From the NCBI GenBank assembly GCA_964636625.1, contig CAZWUL010000002.1, positions 1 through 55,108 of the forward strand: a stretch of 55,108 bases of DNA, written 5' to 3'. The DNA comes from an uncultured Atribacterota bacterium. GTDB lineage: Bacteria > Atribacterota > Phoenicimicrobiia > Phoenicimicrobiales > Stramentimicrobiaceae. Below the pieces are notes generated by a model. It was given only the letters and a program-made list of their open reading frames with translations. It did not search any database and was not told the origin of the DNA. Below, one piece after another: positions 2,343 through 47,617 of this stretch (positions are counted from its first letter, which is position 1; each line of letters starts with the position of its first letter). Both the position numbers and the translations under genes were made by a program.

Positions 2343-5300
2343 TTAGAATGAAATACCTGTTTGAAAGTGAAAACGGAATTGGGAAGGTCCTGAGAGGGCT
2401 TTTCCAATTCCCACAGTTAGAATAAAAGGATTGCTCTGTGCTTGCTTAAATTTGAAACTTAACTCGGCACCGATAGATGTATTTATTTCAGAAGGAATTT
2501 GTGAAAGCTTGCCTTCCCAGGCCTGTCCTGTATCTATAAAAAGAGAGCCGGATACTCTATCCAAAAAGATTGAAGCCCAGTCAAAACCTATTTTCTTCTC
2601 AACAGTCATAATTGGAAAACGATATTCCAGACTGGCAGAAATTAGATTGTTACCGCTAAAGCTCGAAGCAGAAAAGCCCCTGAGGGGGAAAGAATTATTA
2701 TTTACTGTATTTAAACCAGGGTTGCTTGAATTACCTCCAAGGTAAAACTTCTCCTTTTTATTTAGTCCATCTGTTGAAAAGCCGGCAACTAGGCGAAGTG
2801 CTATCACCTGATTTTGAGCTGGGAGAGGAAAATATTTTCTTCCATCAAATAATATTTTATTGAAAGTTAAATCACTTCCAATTATTTTATTGGCATGTTG
2901 ATAACTCAAAGAGAAGGAAGAACCAATTTCAGGACTGATAGAAGATTGGTAGCTTTCGGTGTCATTATATCTGTAATTAAGAATTAAAGAATTAATCTTT
3001 TTAGAAAAAGTTGTATCACTGTCATTTTCTTCAATATTGTAACTGTATAATTTATTTTGAAAGCCAAGAGAAATATTTTCAGAAAAATAACGTGCTGAGT
3101 CCTGCTGGGAAGTGTATCCTTTTCTGGGAAAATTTAATTTAGCCTGATATATAGAACTGGTATACTCTGCATCAAAAAAGTTTTTTATTTCGTTGTTTTC
3201 CAGCAGAGTTTCGCCCTGCCAGGAGACTGACAAGAATGGTTTTCGTGAATAATCATAAAATTCAATGTCATAATAAAGAGCAGGGCTAAAGACTCCCCAT
3301 GCTAAATTAAATGGAATATTATAGAATTTTAAATAATCTTGAGCCAGGCTGGAAAAACCAAGGTAAAGGTCCTTTGAGGTCAGGGCAAAATAAGGAGTCC
3401 AGTAAGTTGGAGAAATGCTTTCCCAGGAAGAGTAATCTTTGGTTTGATAGGTATAACACAGGGGACGGTTCTCTGTATCACGATGTGTGTTCTCATTCTG
3501 GGTATAATAATCCCGATACAGAGAACCGTCCCCTGTATCTTCTGAATCTTCTACTGGTTTCCAGAGTAGATTATGGGTTTTGGTTAAATGAAGCTCATAG
3601 CCAGAAGCATGGTATTGAATAAAAGCCAGTTCCTGGCCATCTGGTGAAATTGCCGGTTCGAAGGCTCCCGTTATGACATTTGTCAGCCTAAACAGCTGGT
3701 TTTCTTTTATATCACTGGCATACAAGTTGAAGATACCGCTTCGGTCTGAGGAAAAATATATATATCTTCCATCCGGAGACCAGTTCGGACTGATGTCAGT
3801 ATGTTTGTTCCGGGTAATAGCCCTGATGTTTTCTATTTTATTACTTTTATCCAATTCTAAAATATAAATATCTTGATATCCGTCCTTCCACATGGAGAAA
3901 GCTATTTGCTTGCCATCTGGAGACCAGACTGGTTGTGTAACCTGTGTTCCATCATGATAGTCAGTAAGAAATGTCAGGTTATCATCAGTCAGTAATTCTA
4001 CCTGGTAGTCATTATTTTTCTTTAGTGCTTCCAAATAATTATTTTCAAGAGAAAATAAGACAAGATTGTTGCTGCCGGCATGATTCACAACTGCAACAAT
4101 AGTGTTATTAGAAATGTCTGGATGCCAGCTGGGGTCTTTAATTCTCAGCCCCTCGGTAAGCCTTATCTGTTTTCCGGTTTCCAGGTGGTATAAAAAAAGG
4201 TCATGATACTGGTAAAATTCTTCATAATTGAGAAGTTTGGTATAAATGAGGTACTTGTTATCCGGTGATAAGGAATAAGAAGTACCATGACCGGTAGTCC
4301 TGTTAATTATAGTTCTTTCTTCACTTGTTGCAGGATTATAAGTGCGAATAGTGGGGTATAGTTCAATATTAGTGACTTTATAAAGCAAAGACAGTGTATC
4401 AATATTATTGCTTTGCCACCAGCCTGGATTATCAACCCAGTATTTATGGTTTGTTAACTGTTCAGATACTGTAGGTTGACTATAATGATATACTTCTTCC
4501 AGCTGTTTTTGATAATGGCTATATTGCTCGTTTTGCCAATCTTCATACAATTCATCCTGATTAATCCCCAGAACTTTTCGTATAGCCCAGTTCATTCCTA
4601 ATAGCGGATAAGTACAGAATTTCTCACTAACGGCTATCAGCTTTTCTTCACCGTATTTTTGAGCGATATAATGAACCAGAGATTGTCCATAAATATACGG
4701 AGTACTACCACCTGGCCAGGAAGTAAGATATGAGCTTTGTAGTAGTTTTAAATCTTTTTGTGTACCTTCTAAGAAATCAGTGCGCAGATACATTTCATAT
4801 CTGTTGTCTACCAATCTACCACCTGAGCTCCATTTGCTCTCATTATAAATAGCTAATCCTTCAATAGCCCACATTGGTTGAAGGGCATTGGGAGCAATAA
4901 TCTGTCCCAGGAAAAAACGGAGAAAAGTAGTCCCTTTGCTGGTCATATCAAAATGAGCTAAATGGGTATATTCGTGAATTAGTAAAATCTTTAACCAGTT
5001 TTCAAACTTAGTATCAAAGTTTTTAAAATGTGGGGCACTAAGGTTTAATCGAATAACACGATGTGGGAGGACAGAAGCAAAACCATAAACAGAATCACTA
5101 AAGTCTTCCAAAGTAATGGCTATTTTCTTGTTTTTGCGAAAGGGCTCACCAAAATAGGGAGTTATCTGCTGGTAGGTTTCCTCAGCGATATCAATGATAT
5201 CAAAGGCAATATTTTGATAATCAAATGGTCTCTGTATCGGGCTCTTCCCTGGGAAAATTACTAAAAAATGCTTACTTTCGGTTACCTGCCATTCAAGTGA

Positions 5301-5411
5301 TGAGTCATAAGAGCTTGACTGAGCTACAACAGATAAACAGATTATCTGAAATAGAATAAGTATTGTTATTAAAAAAATATAATTAAATTTATTATTTTTT
5401 ATTTTAAACAT
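2343..5411 (-). CDS. Outer-membrane multidomain protein: signal peptide + HExxH (peptidase MA-like) domain + TolB-type PD40 beta-propeller + C-terminal Omp85/surface-antigen-like beta-barrel
   Basis: 1022-aa ORF. Hydrophobic N-terminus ending VVAQS. LLIHEYTHLAH at residues 143-153 (nt 4962-4976 encode HEYTH). PD40-like motifs: SPDNKYLIY, WSPDGKQIAFS, WSPDGRYIYFSSDRSG, ISPDGQELAF. Barrel motif: LGGNSS...FPLRGFSASSFSGNNLISASLEYRFPI. C-terminal ...FQTGISF with terminal Phe. Confidence 0.65.
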   Translation of the reverse strand: MFKIKNNKFNYIFLITILILFQIICLSVVAQSSSYDSSLEWQVTESKHFLVIFPGKSPIQRPFDYQNIAFDIIDIAEETYQQITPYFGEPFRKNKKIAITLEDFSDSVYGFASVLPHRVIRLNLSAPHFKNFDTKFENWLKILLIHEYTHLAHFDMTSKGTTFLRFFLGQIIAPNALQPMWAIEGLAIYNESKWSSGGRLVDNRYEMYLRTDFLEGTQKDLKLLQSSYLTSWPGGSTPYIYGQSLVHYIAQKYGEEKLIAVSEKFCTYPLLGMNWAIRKVLGINQDELYEDWQNEQYSHYQKQLEEVYHYSQPTVSEQLTNHKYWVDNPGWWQSNNIDTLSLLYKVTNIELYPTIRTYNPATSEERTIINRTTGHGTSYSLSPDNKYLIYTKLLNYEEFYQYHDLFLYHLETGKQIRLTEGLRIKDPSWHPDISNNTIVAVVNHAGSNNLVLFSLENNYLEALKKNNDYQVELLTDDNLTFLTDYHDGTQVTQPVWSPDGKQIAFSMWKDGYQDIYILELDKSNKIENIRAITRNKHTDISPNWSPDGRYIYFSSDRSGIFNLYASDIKENQLFRLTNVITGAFEPAISPDGQELAFIQYHASGYELHLTKTHNLLWKPVEDSEDTGDGSLYRDYYTQNENTHRDTENRPLCYTYQTKDYSSWESISPTYWTPYFALTSKDLYLGFSSLAQDYLKFYNIPFNLAWGVFSPALYYDIEFYDYSRKPFLSVSWQGETLLENNEIKNFFDAEYTSSIYQAKLNFPRKGYTSQQDSARYFSENISLGFQNKLYSYNIEENDSDTTFSKKINSLILNYRYNDTESYQSSISPEIGSSFSLSYQHANKIIGSDLTFNKILFDGRKYFPLPAQNQVIALRLVAGFSTDGLNKKEKFYLGGNSSNPGLNTVNNNSFPLRGFSASSFSGNNLISASLEYRFPIMTVEKKIGFDWASIFLDRVSGSLFIDTGQAWEGKLSQIPSEINTSIGAELSFKFKQAQSNPFILTVGIGKALSGPSQFRFHFQTGISF
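3458..3536. repeat. Perfect 22-bp inverted repeat (arms 3458-3479 and 3515-3536, 35-nt spacer) inside the OM-protein CDS
   Basis: acaggggacggttctctgtatc ... gatacagagaaccgtcccctgt. The arms are exact reverse complements, checked base by base. Confidence 0.95.
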
Positions 5412-11176: not shown

Positions 11177-11572
11177 CAGGCAATAGCCTCAGGGACAATG
11201 CCCTAGTTTTAATCATATTAAAGTTTTAAATACTTAAATATGTATCAAGCCTAAAATTATCTTTAGAAATTTTAATCCAACATTAATTCGCATATTACCT
11301 GTACAACCTTTTGTTTTTTCAATGGTAATATTTTGATAATCGAAAATATAAATTTAATTTTTAATAATATTTGCAATAAATTAGATTGATAATGGAATTA
11401 AATAGTTAGTTTATCTCTATAATTATTAAAAAATGGTAATCAAAAACAAAAATTGCTGCAATGCTGTAATGATGCAATATTAGAAAAGAATTACTAACAT
11501 GATAATGAAAAACCCAATATTGTAATATCTCATCTGGCAATTTTGCAGCTTAAAAAAATTAAAGGATAAAGA

Positions 11573-12070
11573 ATGAAGTTATGGGGAAAAGCGGGGATTG
11601 TTATTCTAACACTGGTAATAGAGCTTGGTTTGGCTAATATATTAGGTTTAAACACAGTAAAGCCTGATTTGTTATTGATTGTTGTAATTTGTATGGCATT
11701 TATTTCAGGTACAGAAGAAGGTACCATAACCGGATTTGCCGGGGGGCTAATAAAAGACGTTTTTTCTGTACATTATTTAGGCATTAATGCTCTGGTTAAG
11801 ACTTTGATTGGTTACATTGCCGGTGTAATAAAAGATAGAATTTTTTCCCAGCATATTATGTGGATCGTCACTATAGCAACTTTTACCTTTACGTTTATTA
11901 ATAATTTAATTATTTATTACTTATTGAATGCCCTTCATACTGGCTATGATTTTACTATTACCCTAAAGGATTTTATCTTGACCCAGGCAATAATTAATAG
12001 TGTCTTATCTCCTTTTATTTTTATTGGAATAAAAAAAGTATTTACCTTTTTAGGTCGTTGGAGTAAATAG
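11573..12070 (+). CDS. mreD: Rod shape-determining protein MreD (probable)
   Basis: 165-aa multi-TM ORF ending 4 nt before the mrdA start. Size, hydrophobicity and position are typical of MreD. Confidence 0.55.
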   Translation: MKLWGKAGIVILTLVIELGLANILGLNTVKPDLLLIVVICMAFISGTEEGTITGFAGGLIKDVFSVHYLGINALVKTLIGYIAGVIKDRIFSQHIMWIVTIATFTFTFINNLIIYYLLNALHTGYDFTITLKDFILTQAIINSVLSPFIFIGIKKVFTFLGRWSK

Positions 12071-12073
12071 CAT

Positions 12074-13876
12074 ATGTTTAACCGAAAAAATACCCAGATA
12101 ACTGGAGATTTTATAAAAAAAAGACTCAATGACTTATTTATAATGATTATTCTTATCTTTGCAATATTATTAGTAAATCTTTGGTATTTACAGATTATAA
12201 AAGGCCATGAGTATGAACAAAGGGCAATTAATAATTGTATCCGCTCTCTGGAAGAAGAAGCACCCAGGGGTGAAGTGTTTGACAAAGATGAAAATTTGTT
12301 AATAACAAATCGTCCTGCAGTTAATTTTACAGTTATTCCAGCTGAAATTGAAGATTACCATTCATTATCATACCAGATAAGTTCGATTATACCATTGGAA
12401 GAATCATACCTAATAAATAAGTTTGAACAGTTAAGTCAGAGGCCTTTTCAGGCCCAGACTATAGTCAGAGGCCTTGAGAAAGAACAGATTATAGCTTTTG
12501 AAGAACAGAAATATAAATATAAAGGTACTCTTTTAACAATTCAACCGGAAAGAAAATATCTCTATCAGGATTTTGCTGCCCATGTACTGGGTTATGTTAA
12601 CGAGATAAGCGAGGAAGAACTCCAATCTTCTAATTATCAGTATCTTTCAGGCGGTGATATTGTAGGGAAAAGTGGTATTGAAAAACATTACGATGCTTAC
12701 CTGCGAGGCAAAAAGGGAAGTAAGGAAGTTGAAGTGGATGCCCTGGGAAGAGAGATTTTAACACTAAAATCTGTAGAACCTGTTGCCGGAAATGATATAT
12801 ATTTGACGCTCGATAGTGAATTGCAGTTATATATTCAAGAATTAATGACCGGATTAAGAGGGGCAGTCATGGTAAGTGAGGCAAGGACTGGAAAGATTCT
12901 GGCCATGATTAGTCAGCCGGGTTATGATCCTAACTTATTTAACCAACAAATATCAATAGAGAAATGGGAAGAAATATCACAGAGTGAAGAGAACATACTT
13001 TGTAACCGTAGCATTCAGGGTGTTTATCCTCCAGGCTCGGTATTTAAATTAATTACCGCTATTGCTGCCCTGGAAGAAGGTGTAGTGGGATTAAATGATA
13101 GAGTATATTGCCCGGGTTATTTTGAATTAGGTAATTTGACTTTTAAGTGTTGGAGAGAAACCGGGCATGGGACCCAGACTTTTCGAGATGCGATTAGCAA
13201 TTCCTGTAATGTATTCTTTTATACTATTGGGCAGAGACTGGGAATTGACAGGCTTAATCATTATGCTACTATGTTTGGTCTGGGTGAAAAAACAGCTATT
13301 GATTTACCGGGAGAATTATCCGGATTAGTTCCTTCCCAGGAATGGAAGAGAAGGGCTTTTAACCAGGTATGGTTTCCAGGGGATACTATAAATCTATCCA
13401 TAGGCCAGGGGTACTTATTAACAACTCCCTTTCAAATCCATAACATGCTTTGTATAATAACCAATGATGGCAATGTCTACAGGCAATTCCATGTTGATAG
13501 AATTGTTTCTCAATCAGGCCAGGTAATAAGAAAGTACGAACCTGAAATTATTAGAAAAGTTGATGTATCAGCTGACACATTTAGAGTAGTTAAAGAAGGA
13601 ATGAAAAAGGTTGTTGAAGAAGGGACTGGATTTAATGCCAGGGTAGAAGGAGTTTCATTGGCTGGTAAGACAGGTACTGCTCAGAATCCTCAGGGAGAAA
13701 ATCATGGATGGTTTGTAGGTTTTGCCCCATATCAAAATCCAGAAATATGTGTAACCGTTTTTGTTGAACATGGTGGGGATGGGAGTCAATCGGCAGCCCC
13801 AATTGCCAGTGATATTATTGAACACTATTTTCGGCAAACCAGTGGACAGGCGGTCCAGCTGAAAGAATTGCAATAA
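12074..13876 (+). CDS. mrdA: Penicillin-binding protein 2 (elongasome transpeptidase)
   Basis: SxxK (GSVFKL), SxN (ISNSCN) and KTG (GKTGTAQ) motifs. N-terminal TM anchor. Followed by rodA. Confidence 0.9.
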   Translation: MFNRKNTQITGDFIKKRLNDLFIMIILIFAILLVNLWYLQIIKGHEYEQRAINNCIRSLEEEAPRGEVFDKDENLLITNRPAVNFTVIPAEIEDYHSLSYQISSIIPLEESYLINKFEQLSQRPFQAQTIVRGLEKEQIIAFEEQKYKYKGTLLTIQPERKYLYQDFAAHVLGYVNEISEEELQSSNYQYLSGGDIVGKSGIEKHYDAYLRGKKGSKEVEVDALGREILTLKSVEPVAGNDIYLTLDSELQLYIQELMTGLRGAVMVSEARTGKILAMISQPGYDPNLFNQQISIEKWEEISQSEENILCNRSIQGVYPPGSVFKLITAIAALEEGVVGLNDRVYCPGYFELGNLTFKCWRETGHGTQTFRDAISNSCNVFFYTIGQRLGIDRLNHYATMFGLGEKTAIDLPGELSGLVPSQEWKRRAFNQVWFPGDTINLSIGQGYLLTTPFQIHNMLCIITNDGNVYRQFHVDRIVSQSGQVIRKYEPEIIRKVDVSADTFRVVKEGMKKVVEEGTGFNARVEGVSLAGKTGTAQNPQGENHGWFVGFAPYQNPEICVTVFVEHGGDGSQSAAPIASDIIEHYFRQTSGQAVQLKELQ

Positions 13877-20198: not shown

Positions 20199-21491
20199 AT
20201 GTTTTCTGATAAAGTTATTATAAATGTAAAAGCAGGCAATGGTGGCAATGGAGCTGTGAGTTTTCGAAGAGAGCGTTTTGTTGATAAAGGCGGACCTGAT
20301 GGTGGTGATGGAGGAAAAGGCGGTAATGTATTTATTCAGGCTGATTCCCATACCAAAACTTTAATTCAGCTTTATCGTAAGCCACATTGTAATGCAGAAG
20401 ATGGAGAAAGCGGAAGAGGGCAGAAAAAAAACGGCAAGGATGGCCAGGATTTGTTTCTTAAAGTGCCATTGGGTACGATAGTAGAGGATATAGAAAAAAA
20501 TAAAGAGCTTGCTGATCTTTCCAGTGCTGGAAATAGGATATGTGTTGCCCGGGGTGGAATTGGAGGAAAAGGAAATTACCGTTTTAGAGGTTCACAAAGA
20601 CAAATTCCAAATTTTGCCCAAAAAGGTGAGCCTGGAGAGGAAATAAAGATTAAGCTGAATCTAAAGCTTATTGCTGATGCTGGTCTTGTTGGATTTCCGA
20701 ATGCTGGCAAATCTACTCTTCTTGCACGAATTTCTGCTGCAAAACCAAAAATCGCCGATTATCCCTTTACCACTATTGAACCTAATTTAGGAGTAGTACG
20801 GGTTGATGAAGAAAATTCCTTTGTGATAGCTGATATTCCAGGTTTAATAAAAGGTGCTCATGCAGGCGTAGGAATGGGAACACGTTTTTTAAAACATATT
20901 GAGAGAACCAAAGTACTGGTACATCTTATTGATGGTTCTCAGGTAAACGCAGAAAACCTTTTTCAAAACTATCAAACTATTGAAAATGAATTGAAACAAT
21001 ATGCACAATTTTTAGAAAAAAAGAAAAAAATAGTGACAATAAATAAGTGTGATTTGCCAGAAGTAGCTGAAAAAAGGACATGGATAAAAAAAGAATTTTT
21101 AAAAAAAGGAATTGAGGTAAGCTTTATTTCAGCCGTTAATGGGCAGGGAATACAGGATTTTATTTATAAGTTGCATCATCTCATTGATATTGAGAATATA
21201 AAAGATGCTGAAAGTGAATTATTACCGAAAAAACAAATAGAGGAAAAGAGAGTGAAACAGTATGAGTATGAGCCCAAATTTTCCATAAAAAAAGAGAATG
21301 AAATATTTATTGTAGAAAGTGAGAAAATCGAAAAGATGATTAATCGGTATGATTTAGATAATTACCAGGCGTTGCAATATGTGCAAAAGATTTTAAAAAG
21401 TATGGGAATAGAAAAAGCACTAAAAAAAAGAGGAATTAATGAAGGCGACCGCGTAAAAATTGGTAATATGTATTTTTACTTTTATTCATAG
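20199..21491 (+). CDS. obg: GTPase Obg/CgtA
   Basis: Glycine-rich Obg fold (GNGGNGAVSFRRE, GGDGGKGG), G-domain GFPNAGKST and DIPGLI, and a C-terminal OCT-like extension. Confidence 0.95.
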   Translation: MFSDKVIINVKAGNGGNGAVSFRRERFVDKGGPDGGDGGKGGNVFIQADSHTKTLIQLYRKPHCNAEDGESGRGQKKNGKDGQDLFLKVPLGTIVEDIEKNKELADLSSAGNRICVARGGIGGKGNYRFRGSQRQIPNFAQKGEPGEEIKIKLNLKLIADAGLVGFPNAGKSTLLARISAAKPKIADYPFTTIEPNLGVVRVDEENSFVIADIPGLIKGAHAGVGMGTRFLKHIERTKVLVHLIDGSQVNAENLFQNYQTIENELKQYAQFLEKKKKIVTINKCDLPEVAEKRTWIKKEFLKKGIEVSFISAVNGQGIQDFIYKLHHLIDIENIKDAESELLPKKQIEEKRVKQYEYEPKFSIKKENEIFIVESEKIEKMINRYDLDNYQALQYVQKILKSMGIEKALKKRGINEGDRVKIGNMYFYFYS

Positions 21492-21584
21492 ATACTGTAT
21501 AATGTTATGTAAAATAAATCCATATCACTGTTATAATAGTTATAATAAAAAATCAATAAAAATCTTTTAATAAGGTGAAAAAAA

Positions 21585-24500
21585 ATGATTTGTTGGTCTG
21601 AATTATTCAAAAAAAATAAGAATAGGCAAATCAAAACTCATTTATTGTTCTGTTCAATTGTTGCCCTGTTAATGGTTTTATTATTAGGAGTAAACAGTCT
21701 TGCTGCAGAAGTGTCCCATGTAGCAGTTTATTATTTTTATAACCAGACGGGTAATGCCGACTTGCAATGGCTGGAAGAAGAATTGGCTGTCTCAATAGGG
21801 CAAGCTCTGTCTAAAATTGAGCACATAAATTATATGCCTCTATCTGAGGTAAATAGGCTAGTTGATTACCAGCAATACCAAAATATGGTCAGCAAGAAAG
21901 ACTCAATGATGTTTGGTGAACTTGCAAATATGCTACAGGTTGATTTGCTCTTTTCCGGAAATTATTTCCAGGGGGAAAAAGACTATATCGATTTGGATTT
22001 ACTAATGTATTTGCCTTCTGAGGGTCATTTAGTTGAATTTCGCAGGATGTCTGACTCATTAGAGAATCTAGCTGATTTAAAAGAAAGAGTAATTAAGATT
22101 ATTTTGCAGGAAGCAGGTATAGACCCCAACAGTGTTTCCTTAGAAAATATTCTAGATGTTATGGATATCTATGAAGATGACAAGATAACCGAAGCAGAGG
22201 TATTTATTATTGAAGAAATTCCCCAGGAAATTAAGCCAGATTCCCAGGATACTTCATTAGCCCAGGAATATTTCGAGAAAGCAACAGAACTGAAGAATAA
22301 AGCTATACTTGAATATGGAGGGGTAGATTACCCCAGTAAACCTTTATGGAATGAGGCAATCCAAAATGCCACGAAAGCAGTGGAAACAGATCCTGATTTT
22401 GCTGAAGGTTATTTTCTATTAAGCGAGATTTACAGAAGAACTAAATGGATTGCTCGAGAAATAGAGAGTCTGGAACAATATATTGCTGCAATAAAGAGAA
22501 CCAATAAACAAATTAGTCCGCAAGATTTTTCGAATTTGCTTACCAGGCTTGCTCATTTAAAATACAATGCCGGGGAGACCGTTACGGCTATAAACTATTT
22601 AGAAGAGGCAATCTCTAATAATTCAAATAATATTGAAGCCAGGAACTACTTAATGGAAATTTATTATGCTACCGGACAGGGAGTAAAGGCATTGCAACAG
22701 GCGGAAGAGATTAAGCGAATTAAACCAGATAGTATCGAATTAGACTGGTTTGCCAGTAGAGCACAGAGAATATCTCGGTATGGTCGAGAGGCTTTCGATA
22801 GTTATGAAAATGGGTACAATTTATATATTGCAAAAAATTATCAGGAAGCCATAAGGTATTTGGAACAAGCTATAAGATTGGCTCCTGGATTCAAGGATGC
22901 CCATTATTATCTTGCACTAAGTTATTATCATTATGGGAATTTAGATGGAGCAATCCGTCACTGGGAGGAATCCATTCGATTGGATTCATTTGATAACCAT
23001 GCCAGGATTTATTTGAATAAAGCTCTGGAAGAACGGGAATATGGCAGGGAAGCTGTCTGGAGTTTTAATCAGGGCTATAAACATTATGTCGCTGGAGAAT
23101 ACGATGATGCTTTAGTTGAATTTAAGGAGTCTACTTATTTAAACCCTAATTTTGAAAAGGCCAGAATGTTTTTAATGCGAACATATTACCATTTAAATCG
23201 GATGGATGAATACGTCGAAGAGAGAAAGAAAATTGGCGAAAATATTGAATTTACTGGAGAGCTGGAGAGAGAATATTACCTGTTAGGTTATGATTTTTAT
23301 TCAATTGAGGATTATAATGTGGCACTGGAAAAATTAAAAGATGCTTTAGAGATAAACCCGGATTATCTAGAGGCAAGATTTTTAATTGCTGAAACTCTTT
23401 ATCAGCTAAAAAATTATCGTGAGGCAAGCATTCATTATAAGTATATAATAGATAATTATCCTGGTAGTAATTATTATGAAAATGCTTTATTAGGAGGCGG
23501 CTGGTGTTCATATTTAGTTGAAGATTACCGGCAATCAGAAGAATACCTTGAGCTGTTAAAAAATAATTTTCCCAAGAGTCCTCTATACCAGGAAGGGTTG
23601 TATAAATTAGGCAGAGTTTATTTTAGCCGGGAGAAATACCAGGAAACCATAAATATCTATGAGGAATTATTGCAATTAGAAAATTTAGAATACGAGTATG
23701 AAGAAATTAATTATATATTAGGTCAGTCCTTTTTCTGGATAGAAGATTATAACAACGCAAAAAGTTTGCTCCTGGACATTATAGAAAATTATCCTAACTT
23801 TCAACAGATAGATGAAGCAAAGTATTACTATAGCTTTGTTTTGTTTAGAGAAGAACAATATACCGAAGCAAAAAATATGTTAGAAGAATTGGTAAAGAAG
23901 GAAAGCAGCAAGGTGAATGCAGAGGCATCTTATCTTTTAGGAAGAACATTGCTTGAACTTAGAGAATATGATAGAGTTATTACGATTAACAGTTCTTTGC
24001 TAAATAAAGAGATAGATGACCATATGATGGAGAGGGTATTATTTGATCTGGGTCTATCATATTCGCGTAAAGGTGATGATAGAGAAGCAATTATCTTTTT
24101 TAATCGTGTTATTAGTGAATTTCCTCAGGGAGAATTAGCTAGATTGAGCCGGACTGAGCTTGCCCAGAGTTATTATCATTTGGGACAATACCAGGATTCA
24201 TTGGATATACTGGAAGATATTACTACTAAAGAAGCATTGGAAATAAGAATTGATGCAGCAAGAAAAATCGGCGATGATGAACTATTGCGTTCAATCTATC
24301 AAGAATTTGAAGAAAGATATCCGGATGATGAACTGCCAGCAGATGATTATTATGCTTTGGCAATTACTCAATTTAACAATGGTGAATTCCGTAAAGCAAT
24401 TGAAACTTTAAAAATTTTAGAAAGTGATGATTTAAGTGAAAGCCTAAGAAGAGAGAATAACTACTGGCTTGGACTAAGTTATTACCGGCTTCAGGAGTAT

Positions 24501-25262
24501 GGGCAGGCGAAAGAGTATTTTCAAAGGAATGATTATTTGGTGGGAGATGATTCTGCTATAAAGTCTCTATATATGCTGGCAGAATCTTGTTACCAGCTTG
24601 AAGAATATTCCAGGGCAATAGAATATTATATTGAATTTTTAGAGAATTATGGCAATAATTCATTAGCAGAAAATGTTTATTACAGTATATCATGGAGTTA
24701 CTTAAACAATAATAATTACCAGGAGGCATTAGCTTCTTTTAATTCCCTGAAAGAAAAATACCCTGATAGTCAATTTGTCGAGGAGAGTTCCTTTTTGACA
24801 GGCAAAATACAATTTTTGCTCTCTGATAACCAAAGTTCCAGGCAGAGCCTGATTAACTTCACTGAAAAATATCCAAACAGTCAGTATCGGGAAGAATCGT
24901 TGTATATTATTGCCCAGGTAAGTTTAGAAGCAGAGCAGTGGATTGATAGTATCCTGTATTTTGAAAGATTGATTAATGAATATCCCAATAGCCGCTATTT
25001 GCCTGGTTCTTTATATGGCCTGTGTCTAAGTTATTACCAAAAACAGGAATACAGTAAAGCTTTAGATGTGGGTGAGAGGTATTTAGACGATTTCTCCCAA
25101 GGAACATTTGTATGTGATATTCTTTATATTACTGCTATTTGTCAGGAGGAATTAGAGAATATAGACAACGCTATAAAACAGTATGAAAAGATTGTTTTTG
25201 ATTGTCCAGAAAGTATTTATGTTGAAAGTGCAAAAAAACAAATTGAATTTTTAAGCAGATAA
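21585..25262 (+). CDS. Giant envelope TPR protein: signal/anchor + TolB-N-terminal-like (COG5616-type) segment + more than 20 TPR/YbgF-BamD-like repeats
   Basis: 1225 aa. Hydrophobic segment LLFCSIVALLMVLLLGV. VAVYYFYNQTGNADLQWLEEELAVSIGQALSKI pattern. Pervasive Y/A/L TPR periodicity (AxxYLEEAI..NP, YYLALSYY, etc.). Confidence 0.7.
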   Translation: MICWSELFKKNKNRQIKTHLLFCSIVALLMVLLLGVNSLAAEVSHVAVYYFYNQTGNADLQWLEEELAVSIGQALSKIEHINYMPLSEVNRLVDYQQYQNMVSKKDSMMFGELANMLQVDLLFSGNYFQGEKDYIDLDLLMYLPSEGHLVEFRRMSDSLENLADLKERVIKIILQEAGIDPNSVSLENILDVMDIYEDDKITEAEVFIIEEIPQEIKPDSQDTSLAQEYFEKATELKNKAILEYGGVDYPSKPLWNEAIQNATKAVETDPDFAEGYFLLSEIYRRTKWIAREIESLEQYIAAIKRTNKQISPQDFSNLLTRLAHLKYNAGETVTAINYLEEAISNNSNNIEARNYLMEIYYATGQGVKALQQAEEIKRIKPDSIELDWFASRAQRISRYGREAFDSYENGYNLYIAKNYQEAIRYLEQAIRLAPGFKDAHYYLALSYYHYGNLDGAIRHWEESIRLDSFDNHARIYLNKALEEREYGREAVWSFNQGYKHYVAGEYDDALVEFKESTYLNPNFEKARMFLMRTYYHLNRMDEYVEERKKIGENIEFTGELEREYYLLGYDFYSIEDYNVALEKLKDALEINPDYLEARFLIAETLYQLKNYREASIHYKYIIDNYPGSNYYENALLGGGWCSYLVEDYRQSEEYLELLKNNFPKSPLYQEGLYKLGRVYFSREKYQETINIYEELLQLENLEYEYEEINYILGQSFFWIEDYNNAKSLLLDIIENYPNFQQIDEAKYYYSFVLFREEQYTEAKNMLEELVKKESSKVNAEASYLLGRTLLELREYDRVITINSSLLNKEIDDHMMERVLFDLGLSYSRKGDDREAIIFFNRVISEFPQGELARLSRTELAQSYYHLGQYQDSLDILEDITTKEALEIRIDAARKIGDDELLRSIYQEFEERYPDDELPADDYYALAITQFNNGEFRKAIETLKILESDDLSESLRRENNYWLGLSYYRLQEYGQAKEYFQRNDYLVGDDSAIKSLYMLAESCYQLEEYSRAIEYYIEFLENYGNNSLAENVYYSISWSYLNNNNYQEALASFNSLKEKYPDSQFVEESSFLTGKIQFLLSDNQSSRQSLINFTEKYPNSQYREESLYIIAQVSLEAEQWIDSILYFERLINEYPNSRYLPGSLYGLCLSYYQKQEYSKALDVGERYLDDFSQGTFVCDILYITAICQEELENIDNAIKQYEKIVFDCPESIYVESAKKQIEFLSR

Positions 25263-25346
25263 TAAAATTTAGGGATTGTAAATAATGATTAAAAAGATTA
25301 ATATTATGAATTGTTTAGATTTATATGAAATAGAGGAGGCAACTTA

Positions 25347-26012
25347 TTGATGTTTGAACTATTTAACAAGGGCGGGTTCTTAATGTATCCGATTTTTTTC
25401 TGTTCTTTGCTAGCGATTGCCATTTTTTTCGAAAGGATGTTTTTTCTCAAAAGCATAAAAACATCAACACGTAAATTTGGAAATCGTATTAGCGATTTAA
25501 TTAGAAAAGGGAACATAAATTTCGCCATTAGTGCCTGTAGAAAAAATATTTCGCCCATATCCCAAATCATTTTAGCAGCATTATTAAAATATGGAAATTC
25601 GAGAGATGAAATAAAAGAGGTAATTGAGGATACTGCTAGACAAGAAGTTGCTGTTTTAGAAAGGAATTTGCCTATTCTGGCAACTATCGCTAACATTGCT
25701 CCGTTATTAGGTCTATTAGGTACAGTTTTTGGTATGATAAAAGCTTTTCAGGTAGTTTCGGTTGTTGGGGTAGGTAATCCTGAAGCCCTGGCGGGGGGGA
25801 TATCGGAAGCCTTATTAACTACTGCTTTTGGGCTCTCGGTGGCTATACCAACTATTGTTGCTTATAATTACCTGGCACATCGCGTGGACAGGCAAATTAA
25901 AGAAATGGAATCAACTTCTATAGAAGTGCTGGAATTGTTGACAATTAAGCAAGATATAAAAGAAGAGAAAGAGGAAGGCGTGAAGTTAAATGAAGTTCTC
26001 TCACACCATTAA
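25347..26012 (+). CDS. MotA/TolQ/ExbB proton-channel family protein
   Basis: Three TM segments. Conserved LGLLGTVFGMIKAF and EALLTTAFGLSVAIP motifs. AGGAGG SD. Confidence 0.85.
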   Translation: MMFELFNKGGFLMYPIFFCSLLAIAIFFERMFFLKSIKTSTRKFGNRISDLIRKGNINFAISACRKNISPISQIILAALLKYGNSRDEIKEVIEDTARQEVAVLERNLPILATIANIAPLLGLLGTVFGMIKAFQVVSVVGVGNPEALAGGISEALLTTAFGLSVAIPTIVAYNYLAHRVDRQIKEMESTSIEVLELLTIKQDIKEEKEEGVKLNEVLSHH

Positions 26013-26400
26013 AAAAAGAATTGGTTTTGATATAACTCCCCTTATCGATGTGGTCTTCTTATTATTGATTTTTTTCATGCTGACCACTACTTTTATAAAT
26101 GTAGAAAGTGGGGTAAAAGTTGATTTACCCACCGGTGATTTCGCAGCAGTTGAAGAAAGGCAAAATATAGTAGTATCTATTACAGAAAACAATGTTCTGT
26201 ACATGAACAATAATCTGGTAGATCCTAACAATCTTACTAGAGAAATAAGAGAGGCACTTGAAAACAATATTGGTAGTATGGTTGTACTGGAAGCAGATCA
26301 AAATATCAGTCATGGAAAGGTAGTAAGGGTGATGGATTTGATTAAAAAAGGTGGAGCTGAGCGAATTGCCATTGCTACCAAACCAATCGAAGGAAATTAA
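25990..26400 (+). CDS. ExbD/TolR biopolymer transport protein
   Basis: 136 aa. DITPLIDVVFLLLIFFM N-terminal TM with conserved Asp. Overlaps the exbB end by 23 nt. Confidence 0.85.
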   Translation: MKFSHTIKKRIGFDITPLIDVVFLLLIFFMLTTTFINVESGVKVDLPTGDFAAVEERQNIVVSITENNVLYMNNNLVDPNNLTREIREALENNIGSMVVLEADQNISHGKVVRVMDLIKKGGAERIAIATKPIEGN

Positions 26401-26462
26401 TAAGCATAACAAAAGGAAAAATAGTTTAGTAAAAATAACTAAAAATTAGGATGATTAATTAA

Positions 26463-27956
26463 TTGAAAAATACTATTGGATATAGAGCAAAAAGAAGAAA
26501 AATCCGTTCCAAGAGTTTTTTGGGACGTTCTTTTTTAATATCGATAATACTTAATATGTTGTTTATATTTGCTTTCAGCAATATAATTACCTTTGATATA
26601 TTTAATCTCCCTCCTGAAGAAGAGCTTCTTGAGGTAACAATGATAGAACTTCCATCTAGTCAAACTCCCGTATCAACAAGACCTGAAATTGTTAGGGAAG
26701 AGCCGCTAGCTGAGATGGATGTAACACCAAAAGTAGAACCAATGTTGCCAGAGCCTGCCAGAATACAGGAGGTAGAAACACAACCACGTATTGAAGAGCA
26801 AGAGATTGCATCAGAAAGTGCTCCTAAGGTTGAGGTAAAAGTACCTGAAATTGAAATACCACCTTCTGAAGAAATTGCTCCCGTAAGAGAAGAAATTACA
26901 GTAAGACAGGATGTTCAAATAGCCGCGAGATCGATTGAACCAACTCTTACCAGCAGAAGAGAAGTTGAGGGAGAAATATTAGAGCAAGGCCAATATGAGA
27001 TGCAGGCGAGATTAGGAGAAGAGGGCAGAGAGCGAATTGAATCAACATATGGTACAGTGGTTACTCCTGGAAAAATTACCAGTTTGCCGGCTTCGGCAGA
27101 TAAGGAATCTCCTTTTGGTAATCGTCCGCTGGCAATAATGATAGATAATGCAAGCTTTGCTCGTCCTCAGAGCGGGCTCGATAAAGCAAATATAGTTTAT
27201 GAAGTCTTAGCAGAAGGTGGAATTACAAGATTCCTGGCGATTTATGCAACTCAGGAAGCTGATAAAGTCGGACCGGTTCGGAGTGCCCGACCTTATTATA
27301 TAACAAAAACTTTGGAACATGATTCTATTTATGTTCATGCTGGAGAAAGCCCTGATGCCGCAAGGTTTATTAGAGAAGAAAGAATAGATGATATTAATGA
27401 GATGATTCATTTTCAGCCATTTTGGAGAACTACAGACCGTAGTGCACCCCATAATTTATATACTTCTACATTTCAATTAAGGGACGAAGCTAAAAGATTA
27501 GGTTATATTGAAATGGTTAACAAAGGAAGCTATCAATTTGAAATCGATAGAGAAGAGTTGCTATCTGGTAAAGAGGTTTCCAAGATAGATATTAGATACC
27601 ACAGTAATTATACAGTTACATATCAGTATGTAGCCGATATACAGGCATATGCTAGATATATTAATGGCCAACCACACCTGGATGCTGAAACTGGTAAACA
27701 GCTAACTGCAAAGAACATAATAATACAGCACAGTGAAAAAAAAGTTATGGATGAAGAGGGAAGGCTGGCTATTGACTTTATTGGAGAAGACAAAGGAATA
27801 ATAATATTCAACGGCAGTTCTGAAGAAATTACCTGGGTAAAAGAAAGTTTAGCCTCAAGAACATTGTTTTATAACAAAGATGGAAACCGACTAGCCATCC
27901 AACCAGGGAATGTATGGATTCAAGTCATTCATCCGGATACACAGATTAACTATTAA
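26463..27956 (+). CDS. TonB/TolA-like membrane anchor + Pro/Glu-rich spacer fused to a DUF3048 (YerB-like) domain
   Basis: TTG start. A basic N-terminus and one TM (SFLISIILNMLFIFAFS). About 120 aa of P/E/V/I-rich linker (PKVEPMLPEPARIQEVETQPRIEEQE...). Then PLAIMIDNASFARPQSGLDKANIVYEVLAEGGITRFLAIY, which I recognise as the DUF3048 signature. Confidence 0.6.
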   Translation: MKNTIGYRAKRRKIRSKSFLGRSFLISIILNMLFIFAFSNIITFDIFNLPPEEELLEVTMIELPSSQTPVSTRPEIVREEPLAEMDVTPKVEPMLPEPARIQEVETQPRIEEQEIASESAPKVEVKVPEIEIPPSEEIAPVREEITVRQDVQIAARSIEPTLTSRREVEGEILEQGQYEMQARLGEEGRERIESTYGTVVTPGKITSLPASADKESPFGNRPLAIMIDNASFARPQSGLDKANIVYEVLAEGGITRFLAIYATQEADKVGPVRSARPYYITKTLEHDSIYVHAGESPDAARFIREERIDDINEMIHFQPFWRTTDRSAPHNLYTSTFQLRDEAKRLGYIEMVNKGSYQFEIDREELLSGKEVSKIDIRYHSNYTVTYQYVADIQAYARYINGQPHLDAETGKQLTAKNIIIQHSEKKVMDEEGRLAIDFIGEDKGIIIFNGSSEEITWVKESLASRTLFYNKDGNRLAIQPGNVWIQVIHPDTQINY

Positions 27957-28150
27957 AATTATAACAGATATCGGGCATGTAGTTTTGAGCCAAAACAAAG
28001 TAAGAAGTAAAAAAGTTTTTTGGTTTTAAGGTTTTATTACAAATATAAAAAAAATGTAAGTTGCAAGTAAAATAAAATAAATAGTAATAAGCAAAAATAC
28101 TGCTAAATCTTTAGAATAGAATAGTATGATATTAGTTTTTATTTAACCAT

Positions 28151-28174
28151 AAAAAACCACCTTCTAAGAAGGTG
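28151..28174 (-). terminator. Orphan rho-independent terminator reading on the minus strand
   Basis: The minus strand reads CACCTTC-TTA-GAAGGTG-G-TTTTTT. There is no U-run on the + strand side, and no minus-strand CDS upstream of it. Confidence 0.6.
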
Positions 28175-28321
28175 TTAGTGATTAAATAAAATGGTTTTAC
28201 CATAAAAAGATTAAAATAAGATAGATGATAATATTTTGCCTGAAGTACAAAGTTGGAAATACTATTACTTAAGTAAAAATTATGGCTAAAGGTATCAATA
28301 AAAAATCGAAAGAAAAAGAGC

Positions 28322-28348
28322 AAAAAAGTCAAACCCCTTTCAGGGGTT
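28322..28348 (-). other. Second minus-strand hairpin with a U-tract (weak terminator or structured RNA element)
   Basis: The minus strand reads AACCCCT-GAA-AGGGGTT-TGAC-TTTTTT. The 4-nt gap before the U-run weakens the terminator call. Confidence 0.35.
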
Positions 28349-28533
28349 CTTAAAGCCGCCCGCTATTGGGGTGTGATATTTACTAATGTTTAATATTAAA
28401 TATGGTTAGAGTTGCTAATTGTTTTACTATCGCAAGAGTTGTTAAATACAATTTTGGCAATCCAATATACTGTTGAGTGTATTATTTAGTTTGTTGCTGA
28501 AAAGGATAAACTTATTAATTAACTAAGTAGGGA

Positions 28534-34442: not shown

Positions 34443-36317
34443 ATGATACCTTTTAAGCAAGAAAAAATAAAAATTGGATTAAACAAGGTAATAATTATTC
34501 TTTTATTAATAATATTAACAATATCTGCTGATATTTATGCCAGAGAAGAATTTATTCTATTAGATGAAATAGATTCAGGTATGGAAGGTATTGGTAAAAC
34601 TGTTTTCTCTGGAACAAATGTTGAAGAATTTACTGTTCAGGTAATTGATATAGTAACTGGCGGAGGAATTGATGATACATATATATTGATTAAATTAAGC
34701 GGTGAGAGAATAGAAGAAAACGGTGGAATATCTGCAGGAATGAGCGGTACCCCGATTTATTTTGAGGGGAGATTAGCCGGAGCCATTTCTCATGCCTGGG
34801 AATTGAGTGAACATAATCTATGCCTTGTTACGCCTATAGCAAGAATGACAAAATTATTAGATTATGTTAAACCTGAAAATATGGTTGATATTAATAAAGA
34901 TATCAATACAGATATTGAAGAAGTGTCTATTCTGCTGAATAATAGCTTAAAAGAAAAGGTTATTGAAGAAATTACAGAAAGCAAAAAAAATTTAAATGAT
35001 ATTTTTAGTTATAATAAATTTTATACACTAAAATTTGAATCAATTCAATCGCCTTTATTTATTAATGGTTTTAGCGGGAGAGCAGAAAGAAATATTGAGA
35101 GCATAATAAGCAAACAGTTTGAAAAGGAAATTATCAATGTTTCCAGCTTTCCAAAATATAACTCTATTCCAAGTATTAACCCGGAAGGAAAAGAAATTAT
35201 CCCCGGCTCATCAGTAGGCGTGCAGTTATCAGTTGGAGATACAAATGTTCTAACTATTGGAACAGCTACTTATTGTGAAGATGATTATGTTTTAGCTTTT
35301 GGTCATCCTTTTATGCATTTCGGTGATGTCTCCTATCTTTTTTCTGCAGTATATATATACCACAGTTTTCCCAGTATTTTAATGCCATTTAAGTTAGGTT
35401 TTCCCTATAGATTAGCAGGCATAGTGTTGCAAGACAGGGAAGCAGGTATTTTGGCCCATTTAAACCACTTTCCAAAAATAGTGTCTTGCAGGGTTAATGT
35501 TAGAGATATTGATAAGAATACTGATATTCAAAAAGGAACAAGAATTGTACCACACAACGACCTGGTAGAAAGCATTGTAAGTGCTTTAGTACTACAGTCC
35601 ATAGACCAGGCAATTGACAGGATTGGGCAGGGAACAGCAACTGTTCGCCTGGAACTTCTTGCCGGACAGGTTGACGATAAAATGGTATATGACAATATGT
35701 TCTTTAGTAAAAATGATATTGCCATACAATGTAGTGCTGATTTTGAAGAAATAATGGATTTAGTGATAAATAACTATGGTGAAAAGATTATATTGAATGA
35801 AATAAAAGTTGAAATTGATATAAAAGAAGAGAATAAAAGCGCCATTCTAACTGATGTTAGTATAAACGAAAAAGAGTATTTGCCAGGAGATATCATTGAA
35901 GTAGAACTAACAATTAAGCCATTTAGAAAACCCGAGGAAAGCAAATTTATTAAAATTGAATTACCTGAAAATATGGAAACAGGAGAGGTAATATTAATTA
36001 CCAGAGGAGGTTCTTCCAGGGATACAATTATCGAAAGGGCAATTTCTCATGAAAAAGAAAGATATCTATTAAATGGTTGGGAAGATATTAAAGAGAAATA
36101 CCAGAAAAAAGTTAAGAATAATCAAATTGTTACCGAGCTAATTCCAATAAACGAAATGGAAAGAATGTCATTAACAAATGGAGAAAAAAAAGAGGACTTT
36201 AGTGAAAATAATTTAAAGAAAATTATGGATACCAGCTTTGTTATTGAAGGGTACCATGAAATGTACCTGAGTATTAAAAATGAAAAAAACAAAGATAAGG
36301 ATAGGGCTCATGAGTAA
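34443..36317 (+). CDS. Secreted or anchored peptidase S55 (SpoIVB-like) domain protein without an obvious PDZ
   Basis: N-terminal TM/signal. GIGKTVFSG... and SAGMSGTPIYFEGRLAGAISHAW resemble the SpoIVB GMSGSPI...GAVTHV serine motif. Confidence 0.55.
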   Translation: MIPFKQEKIKIGLNKVIIILLLIILTISADIYAREEFILLDEIDSGMEGIGKTVFSGTNVEEFTVQVIDIVTGGGIDDTYILIKLSGERIEENGGISAGMSGTPIYFEGRLAGAISHAWELSEHNLCLVTPIARMTKLLDYVKPENMVDINKDINTDIEEVSILLNNSLKEKVIEEITESKKNLNDIFSYNKFYTLKFESIQSPLFINGFSGRAERNIESIISKQFEKEIINVSSFPKYNSIPSINPEGKEIIPGSSVGVQLSVGDTNVLTIGTATYCEDDYVLAFGHPFMHFGDVSYLFSAVYIYHSFPSILMPFKLGFPYRLAGIVLQDREAGILAHLNHFPKIVSCRVNVRDIDKNTDIQKGTRIVPHNDLVESIVSALVLQSIDQAIDRIGQGTATVRLELLAGQVDDKMVYDNMFFSKNDIAIQCSADFEEIMDLVINNYGEKIILNEIKVEIDIKEENKSAILTDVSINEKEYLPGDIIEVELTIKPFRKPEESKFIKIELPENMETGEVILITRGGSSRDTIIERAISHEKERYLLNGWEDIKEKYQKKVKNNQIVTELIPINEMERMSLTNGEKKEDFSENNLKKIMDTSFVIEGYHEMYLSIKNEKNKDKDRAHE

Positions 36318-45915: not shown

Positions 45916-46455
45916 ATGTTATGCCAGATGTGTAAAAAAAATGAAGCAACTGTAAAGATAGTTAAAGTTGTTGGTATGGGAAAAACAGAAATTAATGTAT
46001 GTAGCGAATGTGCAAATTACCTTTTGGGTAATACTATATCATCAATTTCTTTTTCTCAAAAAAATTTAAATGAAATATTAGGCAATCTTCTGAATACTTT
46101 TTATAAATATAGTGAGCAAGATAATTATAGTTCTTCTGATATTGAGCTTAAATGTATTAACTGTGGTTTAACATACAATGAATTCGTGAAGACCGGAAAA
46201 CTTGGTTGTAGTAAATGTTACGAAACATTTGCAAGACAAATGAAACCACTTTTAGAACGATTGCATGGGAATAGCGAGCATACCGGGAAAATTCCAGATG
46301 AAATTAAAGCCCATAATGATAGAATTAAAAAAATCAATATAATAAAGGAAGAGTTAAAAAAAGCTATATCTAAAGAAGAATATGAAAAAGCTGCCAAATT
46401 GAGGGATATTATTATTGAGGAAGAAAAAAAAGTTGGAATAAAAGGGAATGAATGA
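45916..46455 (+). CDS. mcsA: Protein arginine kinase activator McsA (UvrB/UvrC-motif zinc-finger protein)
   Basis: CQMCKKNEA...CSECA and CINCG...CSKCY zinc fingers, with a C-terminal UVR motif [13 protein letters not shown]. Confidence 0.85.
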   Translation: MLCQMCKKNEATVKIVKVVGMGKTEINVCSECANYLLGNTISSISFSQKNLNEILGNLLNTFYKYSEQDNYSSSDIELKCINCGLTYNEFVKTGKLGCSKCYETFARQMKPLLERLHGNSEHTGKIPDEIKAHNDRIKKINIIKEELKKAISKEEYEKAAKLRDIIIEEEKKVGIKGNE

Positions 46456-47515: not shown

Positions 47516-47617
47516 TATACTATATTAAATTATAAATCCAGAAAATAAATTTATAATTAATGAAATTTTGATAGATTTGTGATATTAATCTAATAGGGAA
47601 GGATCGGAAGATTAAAA

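Follow-up and report, generated by a model that had tools for sequence, protein, structure and literature searches.

What does an ExbB/ExbD-type motor move when neither a Pal lipoprotein nor a TonB-dependent receptor is encoded near it? This question is raised by four co-directional genes in a 55,108-nt stretch of DNA from an uncultured Atribacterota bacterium (GenBank assembly GCA_964636625.1, contig CAZWUL010000002.1, positions 1 to 55,108 of the forward strand), referred to below, at its full length, as the window. A preliminary description of the block, made from the sequence alone, proposed a proton-motive-force (PMF)-driven envelope module of non-canonical architecture, in which the pieces of a Tol system are redistributed over different polypeptides. 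The analysis reported here supports the non-canonical, PMF-dependent module, leaves the redistribution of Tol pieces unsupported, and points to another reading, which we favor with moderate confidence: the locus would be a trans-envelope machine that works on the Ton/Tol principle with a different output, and its fourth protein would be a transducer of the TonB/TolA type in which a YerB-like domain of the DUF3048 family has taken the place of the usual C-terminal domain.

The block comprises the following genes, arranged with short gaps and one overlap as initially described (87 bp, a 23-bp overlap between exbB and exbD, and 62 bp).

21585-25262, plus strand: gene 1, a secreted tetratricopeptide repeat (TPR) giant of 1225 aa, the first gene of the block in every locus examined
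25350-26012, plus strand: gene 2, an ExbB/TolQ-type stator subunit of 220 aa from ATG (alternative TTG start at 25347, 221 aa)
25990-26400, plus strand: gene 3, an ExbD/TolR-type stator subunit of 136 aa
26463-27956, plus strand: gene 4, a putative TonB/TolA-like transducer of 497 aa with a DUF3048 (YerB-like) C-terminal domain

A putative TonB/TolA-type transducer with a YerB-like domain

The AlphaFold2 (AF2) model of protein 4 consists of a transmembrane (TM) helix at residues 22-43, a disordered stretch at residues 44-215 (predicted local distance difference test score, pLDDT, below 55) and a confident globular part at residues 216-497. The modeled protein thereby shows the three-part topology of TonB and TolA, in which a linker, here disordered and about 176 residues long, connects a TM helix to a C-terminal globular domain. 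The TonB/TolA motif is Ser-x3-His-x6-Leu-x3-Ser (SHLS); in E. coli, TonB Ser16 and His20 touch ExbB Ser34 and Trp38, and the D-box 45-ISVTMVT-51 of TonB binds ExbD (PMC12215075). The corresponding parts of protein 4 are as follows.

26526-26591, plus strand: anchor helix (residues 22-43) with S-x3-N-x6-F in SHLS geometry
26622-26654, plus strand: post-helix block (residues 54-64, EELLEVTMIELP) in which V58, E62 and P64 are invariant; a candidate ExbD-binding box
26595-27107, plus strand: disordered linker rich in Pro (11%) and Glu (20%), about 176 residues long
27108-27953, plus strand: globular DUF3048 plus DUF3048_C domain (residues 216-497) with the YerB fold

The anchor of the window protein reads S27-x3-N31-x6-F38, with I42 at the last position of the motif. 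Across 103 homologues sharing 47-100% identity, the invariant residues of the helix are G21, S23, F24, S27, N31, F38 and F44, and those of the early linker are limited to V58, E62, P64, P69 and P74. The post-helix block (consensus V-[ST]-[LM]-[VI]-E-[LI]-P) begins 12 residues past the helix and resembles E. coli TonB 35-VIELPAPAQP-44 and the adjoining D-box, a likeness to TonB 35-51 that is non-random but weak. In the alignment to a hidden Markov model (HMM) built from the anchor region, TolA KRAIIISAVLHVILFA has its S18 and H22 on S27 and N31, and TonB VIELPAPAQP falls on the post-helix block. The real scores were reached by 5-7 of 3000 composition-preserving full shuffles, and in a block-wise shuffle control the TonB score was reached 7 times and the TolA score 37 times out of 3000. 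At the level of such profiles, the anchor resembles TonB and TolA in a way that is faint but not random. The NCBIfam TonB model PRK10819 also matched residues 25-183 weakly (E = 3.7e-4).

Protein 4 had been described as a single-TM, Pro/Glu-rich protein whose C-terminus is neither a TonB_C nor a TolA_III domain, and each of these features was recovered. Pfam assigns DUF3048 (E = 3.9e-48, 163.8 bits) and DUF3048_C (E = 1.2e-29, 103.4 bits; cutoff 25) and gives no TonB_C and no TolA match. The globular domain aligns with Bacillus subtilis YerB (PDB entry 2PSB) at E = 4.7e-44 in phmmer and superimposes on it in Foldseek with a template modeling score over the target (TMt) of 0.87, a root-mean-square deviation (rmsd) of 2.0 Å and 35% identity; besides 2PSB, Foldseek returned no PDB match at E < 0.1.

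The ExbB/ExbD-type motor

Both channel calls of the preliminary description are backed by Pfam, in which MotA_ExbB matches protein 2 at E = 3.8e-36 (124.1 bits, cutoff 22.9) and ExbD matches protein 3 at E = 1.4e-30 (106.5 bits, cutoff 25.4); by these profiles the motor is assigned to the MotA/TolQ/ExbB-ExbD/TolR 5:2 stator superfamily. Equivalents of the TolQ pore residues T145 and T178, of P187 in TM3 and of Ser28 in TM1 are kept in the window ExbB. The pore residues and the TM Asp of ExbD are conserved in six loci, and this Asp, found in TPLIDVVF, aligns with those of ExbD and TolR in solved motors.

The type of the motor is less clear-cut. On NCBIfam models, protein 2 scored 119.6 bits against TolQ (cutoff 221) and 78.1 bits against ExbB (cutoff 206.2), and protein 3 scored 81 bits against TolR (cutoff 127.3) and 58 bits against the ExbD models (cutoffs 123-153), with TIGR02797, TIGR02803 and TIGR02804 serving as the Ton-type equivalog models for the two subunits. 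Against solved chains, ExbB is closest to TolQ, whereas the periplasmic domain of ExbD scores higher against ExbD (44 and 38 bits) than against TolR (33 bits). Judged by these scores, the motor is neither clearly Tol nor clearly Ton.

The Trp38/Trp32 position (Trp38 in E. coli ExbB) was compared in the window, in three further JS1-type loci (L003-L005) and in two deeper lineages (L008 and L009, introduced below). Where the anchor carries Asn (five loci), the residues are Ile, Ile, Val, Val and Leu, with Ile in the window ExbB; in L008, the only compared locus whose anchor carries His, it is Phe. The TM1 Ser is invariant across the compared loci. This His/Phe versus Asn/aliphatic pattern is as expected if the two residues touch, and it may reflect co-variation between motor and transducer.

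Other motor-based systems were also considered. None of the four proteins matched the PADLOC models of anti-phage defense motors (e.g., Zorya), and a defense-system reading was rejected on this basis; readings as gliding or type IX secretion machinery were set aside because the scores on the GltE and PorW models stayed far under the cutoffs.

The TPR giant

The first gene of the block encodes a large protein with three recognizable parts.

21585-21704, plus strand: signal peptide (residues 1-40) with a basic n-region, a hydrophobic core and the end ...NSLA/AE
21714-22139, plus strand: alpha/beta head domain (residues ~44-185), predicted TolB-N/LpoB/PelC/GNA1162 fold by AF2 and Foldseek
22332-25259, plus strand: TPR solenoid (residues ~250-1225) with about 21 units detectable by a self-built TPR profile

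The signal peptide was read directly off the sequence; a lipobox was looked for at the N-terminus and none was present, and the orthologues carry classical signal peptidase I signals (LSFA/EE in L008 and VFS/QN in L009). The giant is accordingly described here as a probable soluble periplasmic scaffold.

The head domain had been thought to follow the N-terminal pattern of TolB. This stands at the level of the fold and fails at the level of the sequence: an AF2 model built on a 25-sequence orthologue alignment (pLDDT 92.2, predicted template modeling score 0.88) superimposes on the TolB N-domain with a query-normalized score (TMq) of 0.63-0.66 and an rmsd of 3.4-3.8 Å, but the TolB_N HMM (PF04052) gave no match at E <= 10 to the window protein or to four orthologues. 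In Foldseek searches of the PDB the head was matched by PelC (E = 1e-4) and LpoB (1.4e-4), within a fold group at E = 1e-4 to 1e-3 and probability 1.0 whose other members are GNA1162, CT253, FlgT and the TolB N-domain. The modeled fold is therefore best called generic, equally near LpoB, PelC, GNA1162 and TolB-N and not specific to TolB. Pfam and NCBIfam gave nothing significant for the N-terminus of the giant, taken alone, or for five orthologues, apart from a marginal CsgG match (E = 0.057) in one orthologue, and a profile of the N-terminal domain found chance matches only among PDB sequences.

The repeats are, as proposed, more than 20 in number and of the CpoB/YbgF/BamD kind. Pfam reports dense TPR matches (TPR_2, TPR_6 and TPR_16) together with YfiO/BamD. 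The whole giant reaches 198.5 bits on the YbgF/CpoB model TIGR02795 (cutoff 90.1), a score summed over nine repeated modules, of which the best, the last one (residues 1103-1223), gives 70.1 bits by itself and 55 bits on BamD. The repeats are thus of the CpoB/BamD kind, and the giant is probably not a CpoB equivalog. Full-length orthologues, sharing 35-100% identity, occur in Atribacterota only, the other matches being generic TPR similarity.

Conservation of the locus in Atribacterota

The linkage of the four genes, which the preliminary description left as a point to check, is kept in related lineages. The organism names attached to homologues of protein 4 and the giant are Atribacterota or Caldatribacteriota. 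The order giant-ExbB-ExbD-DUF3048 is identical in the JS1-type loci L003-L005, in which the entire neighborhood is syntenic, with L21-L27-Obg upstream and XerC-PNP downstream, and for this reason the linkage there says little by itself. More is learned from two deeper lineages. In Thermatribacter velox (L009, complete genome CP121689.1), the block is preceded by genes for an extracytoplasmic function (ECF) sigma factor, an anti-sigma factor, HtrA and others, and followed by lgt, xerC and PNP; in the metagenome-assembled genome (MAG) GCA_053938705.1 (L008), it is preceded by AFOR, aldolase, proB and proA. The gaps within the block are tight or overlapping, 25, -29 and 5 bp in one of the two lineages and 33, 1 and -44 bp in the other. 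Between the deep lineages, identities are 55-64% for PNP, 35-37% for protein 4 and 26-27% for the giant (over its full length for the window versus L008), and by pairwise identity L008 is about as distant from the window organism as the class Atribacteria. The block is thus intact in three deep lineages with different upstream genes, and the four genes probably form one operon, conserved across Atribacterota.

The surroundings of the block in the window are cell-wall, shape and division genes, including MreD-PBP2-RodA, XerC, MurA and MreB, and lgt in T. velox. A scan for promoters gave one promoter-like site (10/12) at 21475-21503, upstream of the giant, and performed no better on the real sequence than on shuffles. 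No convincing terminator was found by a plus-strand scan inside the block, and an Rfam search of 19-30 kb matched no RNA element. The sole plus-strand match in the block is a terminator-like hairpin with a T-run at 26505-26527, within the first 65 nt of the protein 4 coding region (the basic segment RSKSFLGRS), and it probably arose by chance.

As a further observation on T. velox, the ECF sigma factor, zf-HC2 anti-sigma factor and HtrA protease genes before the block (18-3495 of L009), together with lgt (lipoprotein diacylglyceryl transferase, 11452-12219) directly after it, give the operon an envelope-stress and lipoprotein context there.

The DUF3048 family

An exhaustive search of 1.84 billion representatives gave 7,491 DUF3048 clusters at E <= 1e-3. 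Among the best 150 of these, four have a TonB-like anchor with a long linker, and 55 have lipoboxes. Two of the four anchors carry Asn, namely P0061 (JS1) and P0171 (T. velox and Atrimonas thermophila, from the cultured class Atribacteria). The other two belong to deeper relatives and carry the canonical His in the pattern S-x3-H-x6-[L/F]: P0173 with ISLIIHVL and P0176 with AISLIIHTLILLAF.

P0176 (L011, positions 796-2886 of a JGI 3300009529 contig) joins its anchor to a 329-aa Glu/Lys-rich linker and DUF3048; a divergent gene for a xylose-isomerase-like TIM barrel, and no ExbD, lies upstream. It is an unlinked member of the same anchor-linker-DUF3048 architecture, and many tonB genes likewise are not adjacent to motor genes (PMC12204202). 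A contig search with P0173 found only an unrelated YerB-like locus from Bacilli.

Two more architectures were seen in the family. One consists of a signal peptide and a conserved helical N-terminal extension of ~250-350 aa (YFELRDT..L), the other of a TM segment and repeated PEGA-like beta modules (proteins P0214, P0242, P0253, P0260, P0270, P0288, P0290, P0303 and P0307; P0234, P0235 and P0286). DUF3048 proteins have thus diversified their N-terminal parts several times.

Tol-Pal components and the Omp85-PD40 protein

The preliminary description saw in the window no Pal/OmpA-like lipoprotein, no free-standing TolB and no TonB-dependent receptor, and found the PD40 propeller only inside an Omp85 protein at 2343-5411. 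The precomputed Pfam annotation of the whole window agrees on all these points and contains no TonB_C either. Reports of Tol-Pal are confined to Gracilicutes (PMC12204202); in a member of the Atribacterota, Pal and TolB would therefore be expected to be missing, and their absence does not indicate a rearrangement.

The Omp85-PD40 gene lies on the minus strand, 16 kb from the block. Its product of 1022 aa has an Omp85 barrel at residues 743-1022, a PD40 propeller at ~430-600 and a sub-threshold Peptidase_MA_2 region at 138-294, and it fits the "OMP-TolB-like" (outer-membrane protein, TolB-like) class, which forms a separate widespread family of barrels (PMC12204202). In T. velox and in MAG GCA_053938705.1, no such gene occurs in the flanks within 10 kb on either side of the block. 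These flanks contain no linked gene for a TonB-dependent receptor or barrel, and no receptor gene is present in the 55-kb window.

Proposed mechanism and alternative explanations

If protein 4 is a transducer, its anchor helix would dock on the rim of the ExbB pentamer through the Ser27/Asn31 face, against Ser19 and Ile23 in TM1 of ExbB, and the conserved strand after the helix would bind the periplasmic ExbD dimer. Proton flow would turn ExbD and pull the linker, and the force or conformational change would pass to whatever the DUF3048 domain holds, the likeliest partner being either the TPR giant of the same operon or a component that the giant organizes in the peptidoglycan or outer membrane. 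The purpose of such a machine may, with low confidence, be envelope maintenance or division, as for Tol, rather than TonB-box-dependent nutrient import. We lean to this role because TonB_C and a linked receptor are absent, the TPR modules are of the CpoB/BamD type, the head of the giant is LpoB/TolB-N-like, and the neighbors are cell-wall and division genes; the higher score of ExbB on TolQ than on ExbB models was also counted toward it.

Several points weigh against the transducer interpretation. The sequence resemblance to TonB and TolA amounts to only 5-6 bits, the anchor profile of protein 4 found no matches among PDB chains, and the D-box equivalent within the post-helix block is ambiguous. 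The essential His of the SHLS motif is replaced by Asn in all Atribacterota; the E. coli TonB H20N mutant is active. The co-variation with ExbB is a single independent contrast. The best SHLS anchor belongs to P0176, whose gene has no ExbD gene upstream and is not adjacent to a motor. Downstream of the operon, xerC and PNP are also conserved, so the linkage may in part be inherited gene order. Literature searches on DUF3048 and YerB gave no functional data. Finally, the fully extended linker would measure ~55 nm, whereas in A. laminatus the outer layer lies ~7 nm from the middle one (PMC7736352).

The same mechanism could serve a Ton-like purpose, with DUF3048 engaging an outer-membrane transporter or gate, possibly other than a TonB-dependent transporter, for import or export, and with the TPR giant as an accessory comparable to the TPR protein associated with the von Willebrand factor type A (vWA) transducers described below. 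The affinity of the ExbD periplasmic domain to solved ExbD over TolR agrees with this purpose, as do the TPR genes that accompany other motor-transducer clusters and the proposal that Ton systems are of ancestral origin and widely distributed among diderm Terrabacteria (PMC12204202, section 11). We nevertheless consider it quite improbable, since protein 4 has no TonB_C domain, no gene for a TonB-dependent receptor or barrel is linked to the block (window, L008 and L009), and the operon sits among housekeeping genes, not uptake genes. Another explanation would make protein 4 a passive, membrane-anchored YerB-like exoprotein with incidental polar residues in its helix, with ExbB and ExbD working for a canonical TonB, or some other partner, whose gene lies elsewhere. 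Most DUF3048 proteins are indeed lipoproteins or simply anchored, many with low-complexity linkers and no nearby motor, P0176 is not next to ExbBD, and PMC12204202, citing Dodsworth 2013, places TonB in Atribacteria. This explanation is unlikely in view of the three polar residues that lie on one face of the helix with SHLS spacing and are invariant phylum-wide, the canonical S-x3-H of the deeper relatives, and the matched change in the ExbB residue at the contact; further arguments against it are that in L008 and L009 the gene is translationally coupled to exbD or overlaps it, and that the block persists where its flanks are rearranged.

The reading of the preliminary description, a true but divergent Tol-Pal with shuffled parts (TolQ, TolR, TolA::DUF3048, a TolB-N::CpoB fusion and the TolB propeller on an Omp85 barrel), drew on the preference of ExbB for TolQ models, the YbgF/CpoB-type TPR modules, the TolB-N-like fold in the giant and the PD40-Omp85 protein in the window. 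Its basis is removed because Tol-Pal is reported from Gracilicutes alone and the OMP-TolB-like barrels are a separate widespread family (PMC12204202). Moreover, the window has no Pal/OmpA-like gene, the head does not match TolB_N and is equally close in fold to LpoB and PelC, all scores on Tol equivalog models are below cutoff, and the Omp85-PD40 gene is unlinked in other lineages. As a statement of family membership, a shuffled Tol-Pal is largely refuted, and we hold the reading as a whole to be very improbable. The outcomes that the preliminary description had named as refuting it were not observed: the linkage of the four genes is conserved, and the head has TolB-N-like similarity at the level of the fold, despite the silent TolB_N HMM.

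A broader scenario is doubtful, though worth stating: Atribacterota and a related lineage might use the module as a Pal-independent functional counterpart of Tol, in which an ExbBD-type motor pulls via the YerB-like domain on a giant CpoB-like and LpoB-like periplasmic scaffold. By extension, the thousands of DUF3048/YerB lipoproteins of monoderm Firmicutes and Actinobacteria might be related to, or descended from, an envelope domain that receives force, having no motor of their own; this orphan family would then gain its first functional context.

Comparison with known systems

The closest described precedent, by analogy of architecture, is the "motor-driven force transducers" with a vWA domain, in which a TM helix with an SHLS motif, a linker and vWA follow one another and the gene is preceded by one for a TPR protein and by tolQR-like genes (Williams-Jones et al. 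2025, PMC12204202, section 8); these occur in Proteobacteria, in the Planctomycetes-Verrucomicrobia-Chlamydiae (PVC) group and in Bacteroidetes. Shared with the window are the TPR gene in first place, the motor, and then a putative transducer made up of a TM helix with a candidate SHLS-type motif, a linker predicted to be disordered and a globular C-terminal domain that is related to neither TonB nor TolA. The differences are that the C-terminal domain here is DUF3048/YerB instead of vWA, that one ExbD gene replaces the heterologous pair of the vWA type, that the Atribacterota anchor has Asn for His, that a TolB-N/LpoB-type head is carried by a TPR protein of giant size (1200 aa), and that the host phylum is Atribacterota (Terrabacteria).

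With ExbB-ExbD-TonB, the locus shares a predicted 5:2-type stator with conserved pore residues, a putative partner helix with Ser-x3-(His/Asn) spacing, a candidate post-helix segment weakly like TonB 35-51 and a Pro-rich disordered linker. It differs in having no TonB_C and no linked TonB-dependent receptor, an aliphatic residue at the ExbB Trp38 position, and ExbB and ExbD scores below equivalog cutoffs. Tol-Pal (TolQ-TolR-TolA-TolB-Pal-CpoB) resembles the block in its TolQ-like motor, its CpoB-type TPR protein in the operon, the TolB-N-like fold, and a neighborhood of housekeeping and envelope genes. In contrast, Pal, a periplasmic TolB and TolA domain III are absent from the window, and the TPR protein is encoded by the first gene of the operon, is not a lipoprotein and is ten times larger than the YbgF/CpoB domain model TIGR02795 (119 positions). 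B. subtilis YerB shares the fold of the C-terminal 280 residues of protein 4, with both Pfam domains above cutoff in the latter, but YerB-type proteins are lipoproteins of ~350 aa from monoderms with no nearby motor, whereas the domain described here sits on a TonB-like anchor and linker right after ExbBD.

According to PMC12204202, which cites Dodsworth 2013 for it, TonB occurs in Atribacteria, a statement taken here at second hand from that citation. Neither TonB nor ExbB is mentioned in the Atribacterota envelope papers PMC7736352 and PMC13408713 or in the T. velox isolation paper PMC11227167, and neither Atribacter nor DUF3048 is mentioned in the supplements of PMC12204202.

Implications

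Ton and Tol are the two well-studied routes by which inner-membrane energy reaches the outer envelope; the vWA output type was proposed only in 2025, and YerB/DUF3048 would be a fourth. Among the machines by which bacteria energize their outer envelope, the module with a YerB/DUF3048 output seems to be a variant not described before. If this is correct, it widens the known set of ExbBD-driven machines and provides a testable hypothesis for a large orphan family, with one crystal structure for 7,491 representative clusters. It would further offer a handle on the envelope biology of Atribacterota, an abundant subsurface phylum with an unusual three-layer envelope (PMC7736352, PMC13408713), for whose clade no Tol-Pal has been reported. 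The natural Asn-for-His anchor and the non-aromatic ExbB contact provide a ready test of the proposed Ser/His to Ser/Trp to Pro signaling network in Ton and Tol motors (PMC12215075).

Other features of the window

A non-coding gap of 578 bp (27957-28533) separates the DUF3048 gene from the xerC-like gene. It contains two minus-strand terminator-like hairpins (28349-28331 and 28174-28158) and a minus-strand open reading frame of 66 aa (28132-28332), with no Rfam match. In L003, L008 and L009 the gene that follows the DUF3048 gene abuts or overlaps it, which makes the gap specific to the close relatives of the window organism.

Farther downstream, at 34443-36317, the gene that directly follows mreB codes for a SpoIVB-type protein (Peptidase_S55), in a phylum described as non-sporulating, and it is kept in L003 and L004. 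At ~45916-50101, a Firmicutes-type stress operon (a McsA-like UVR protein, McsB arginine kinase and ClpC), followed by RadA, is present in this diderm organism.

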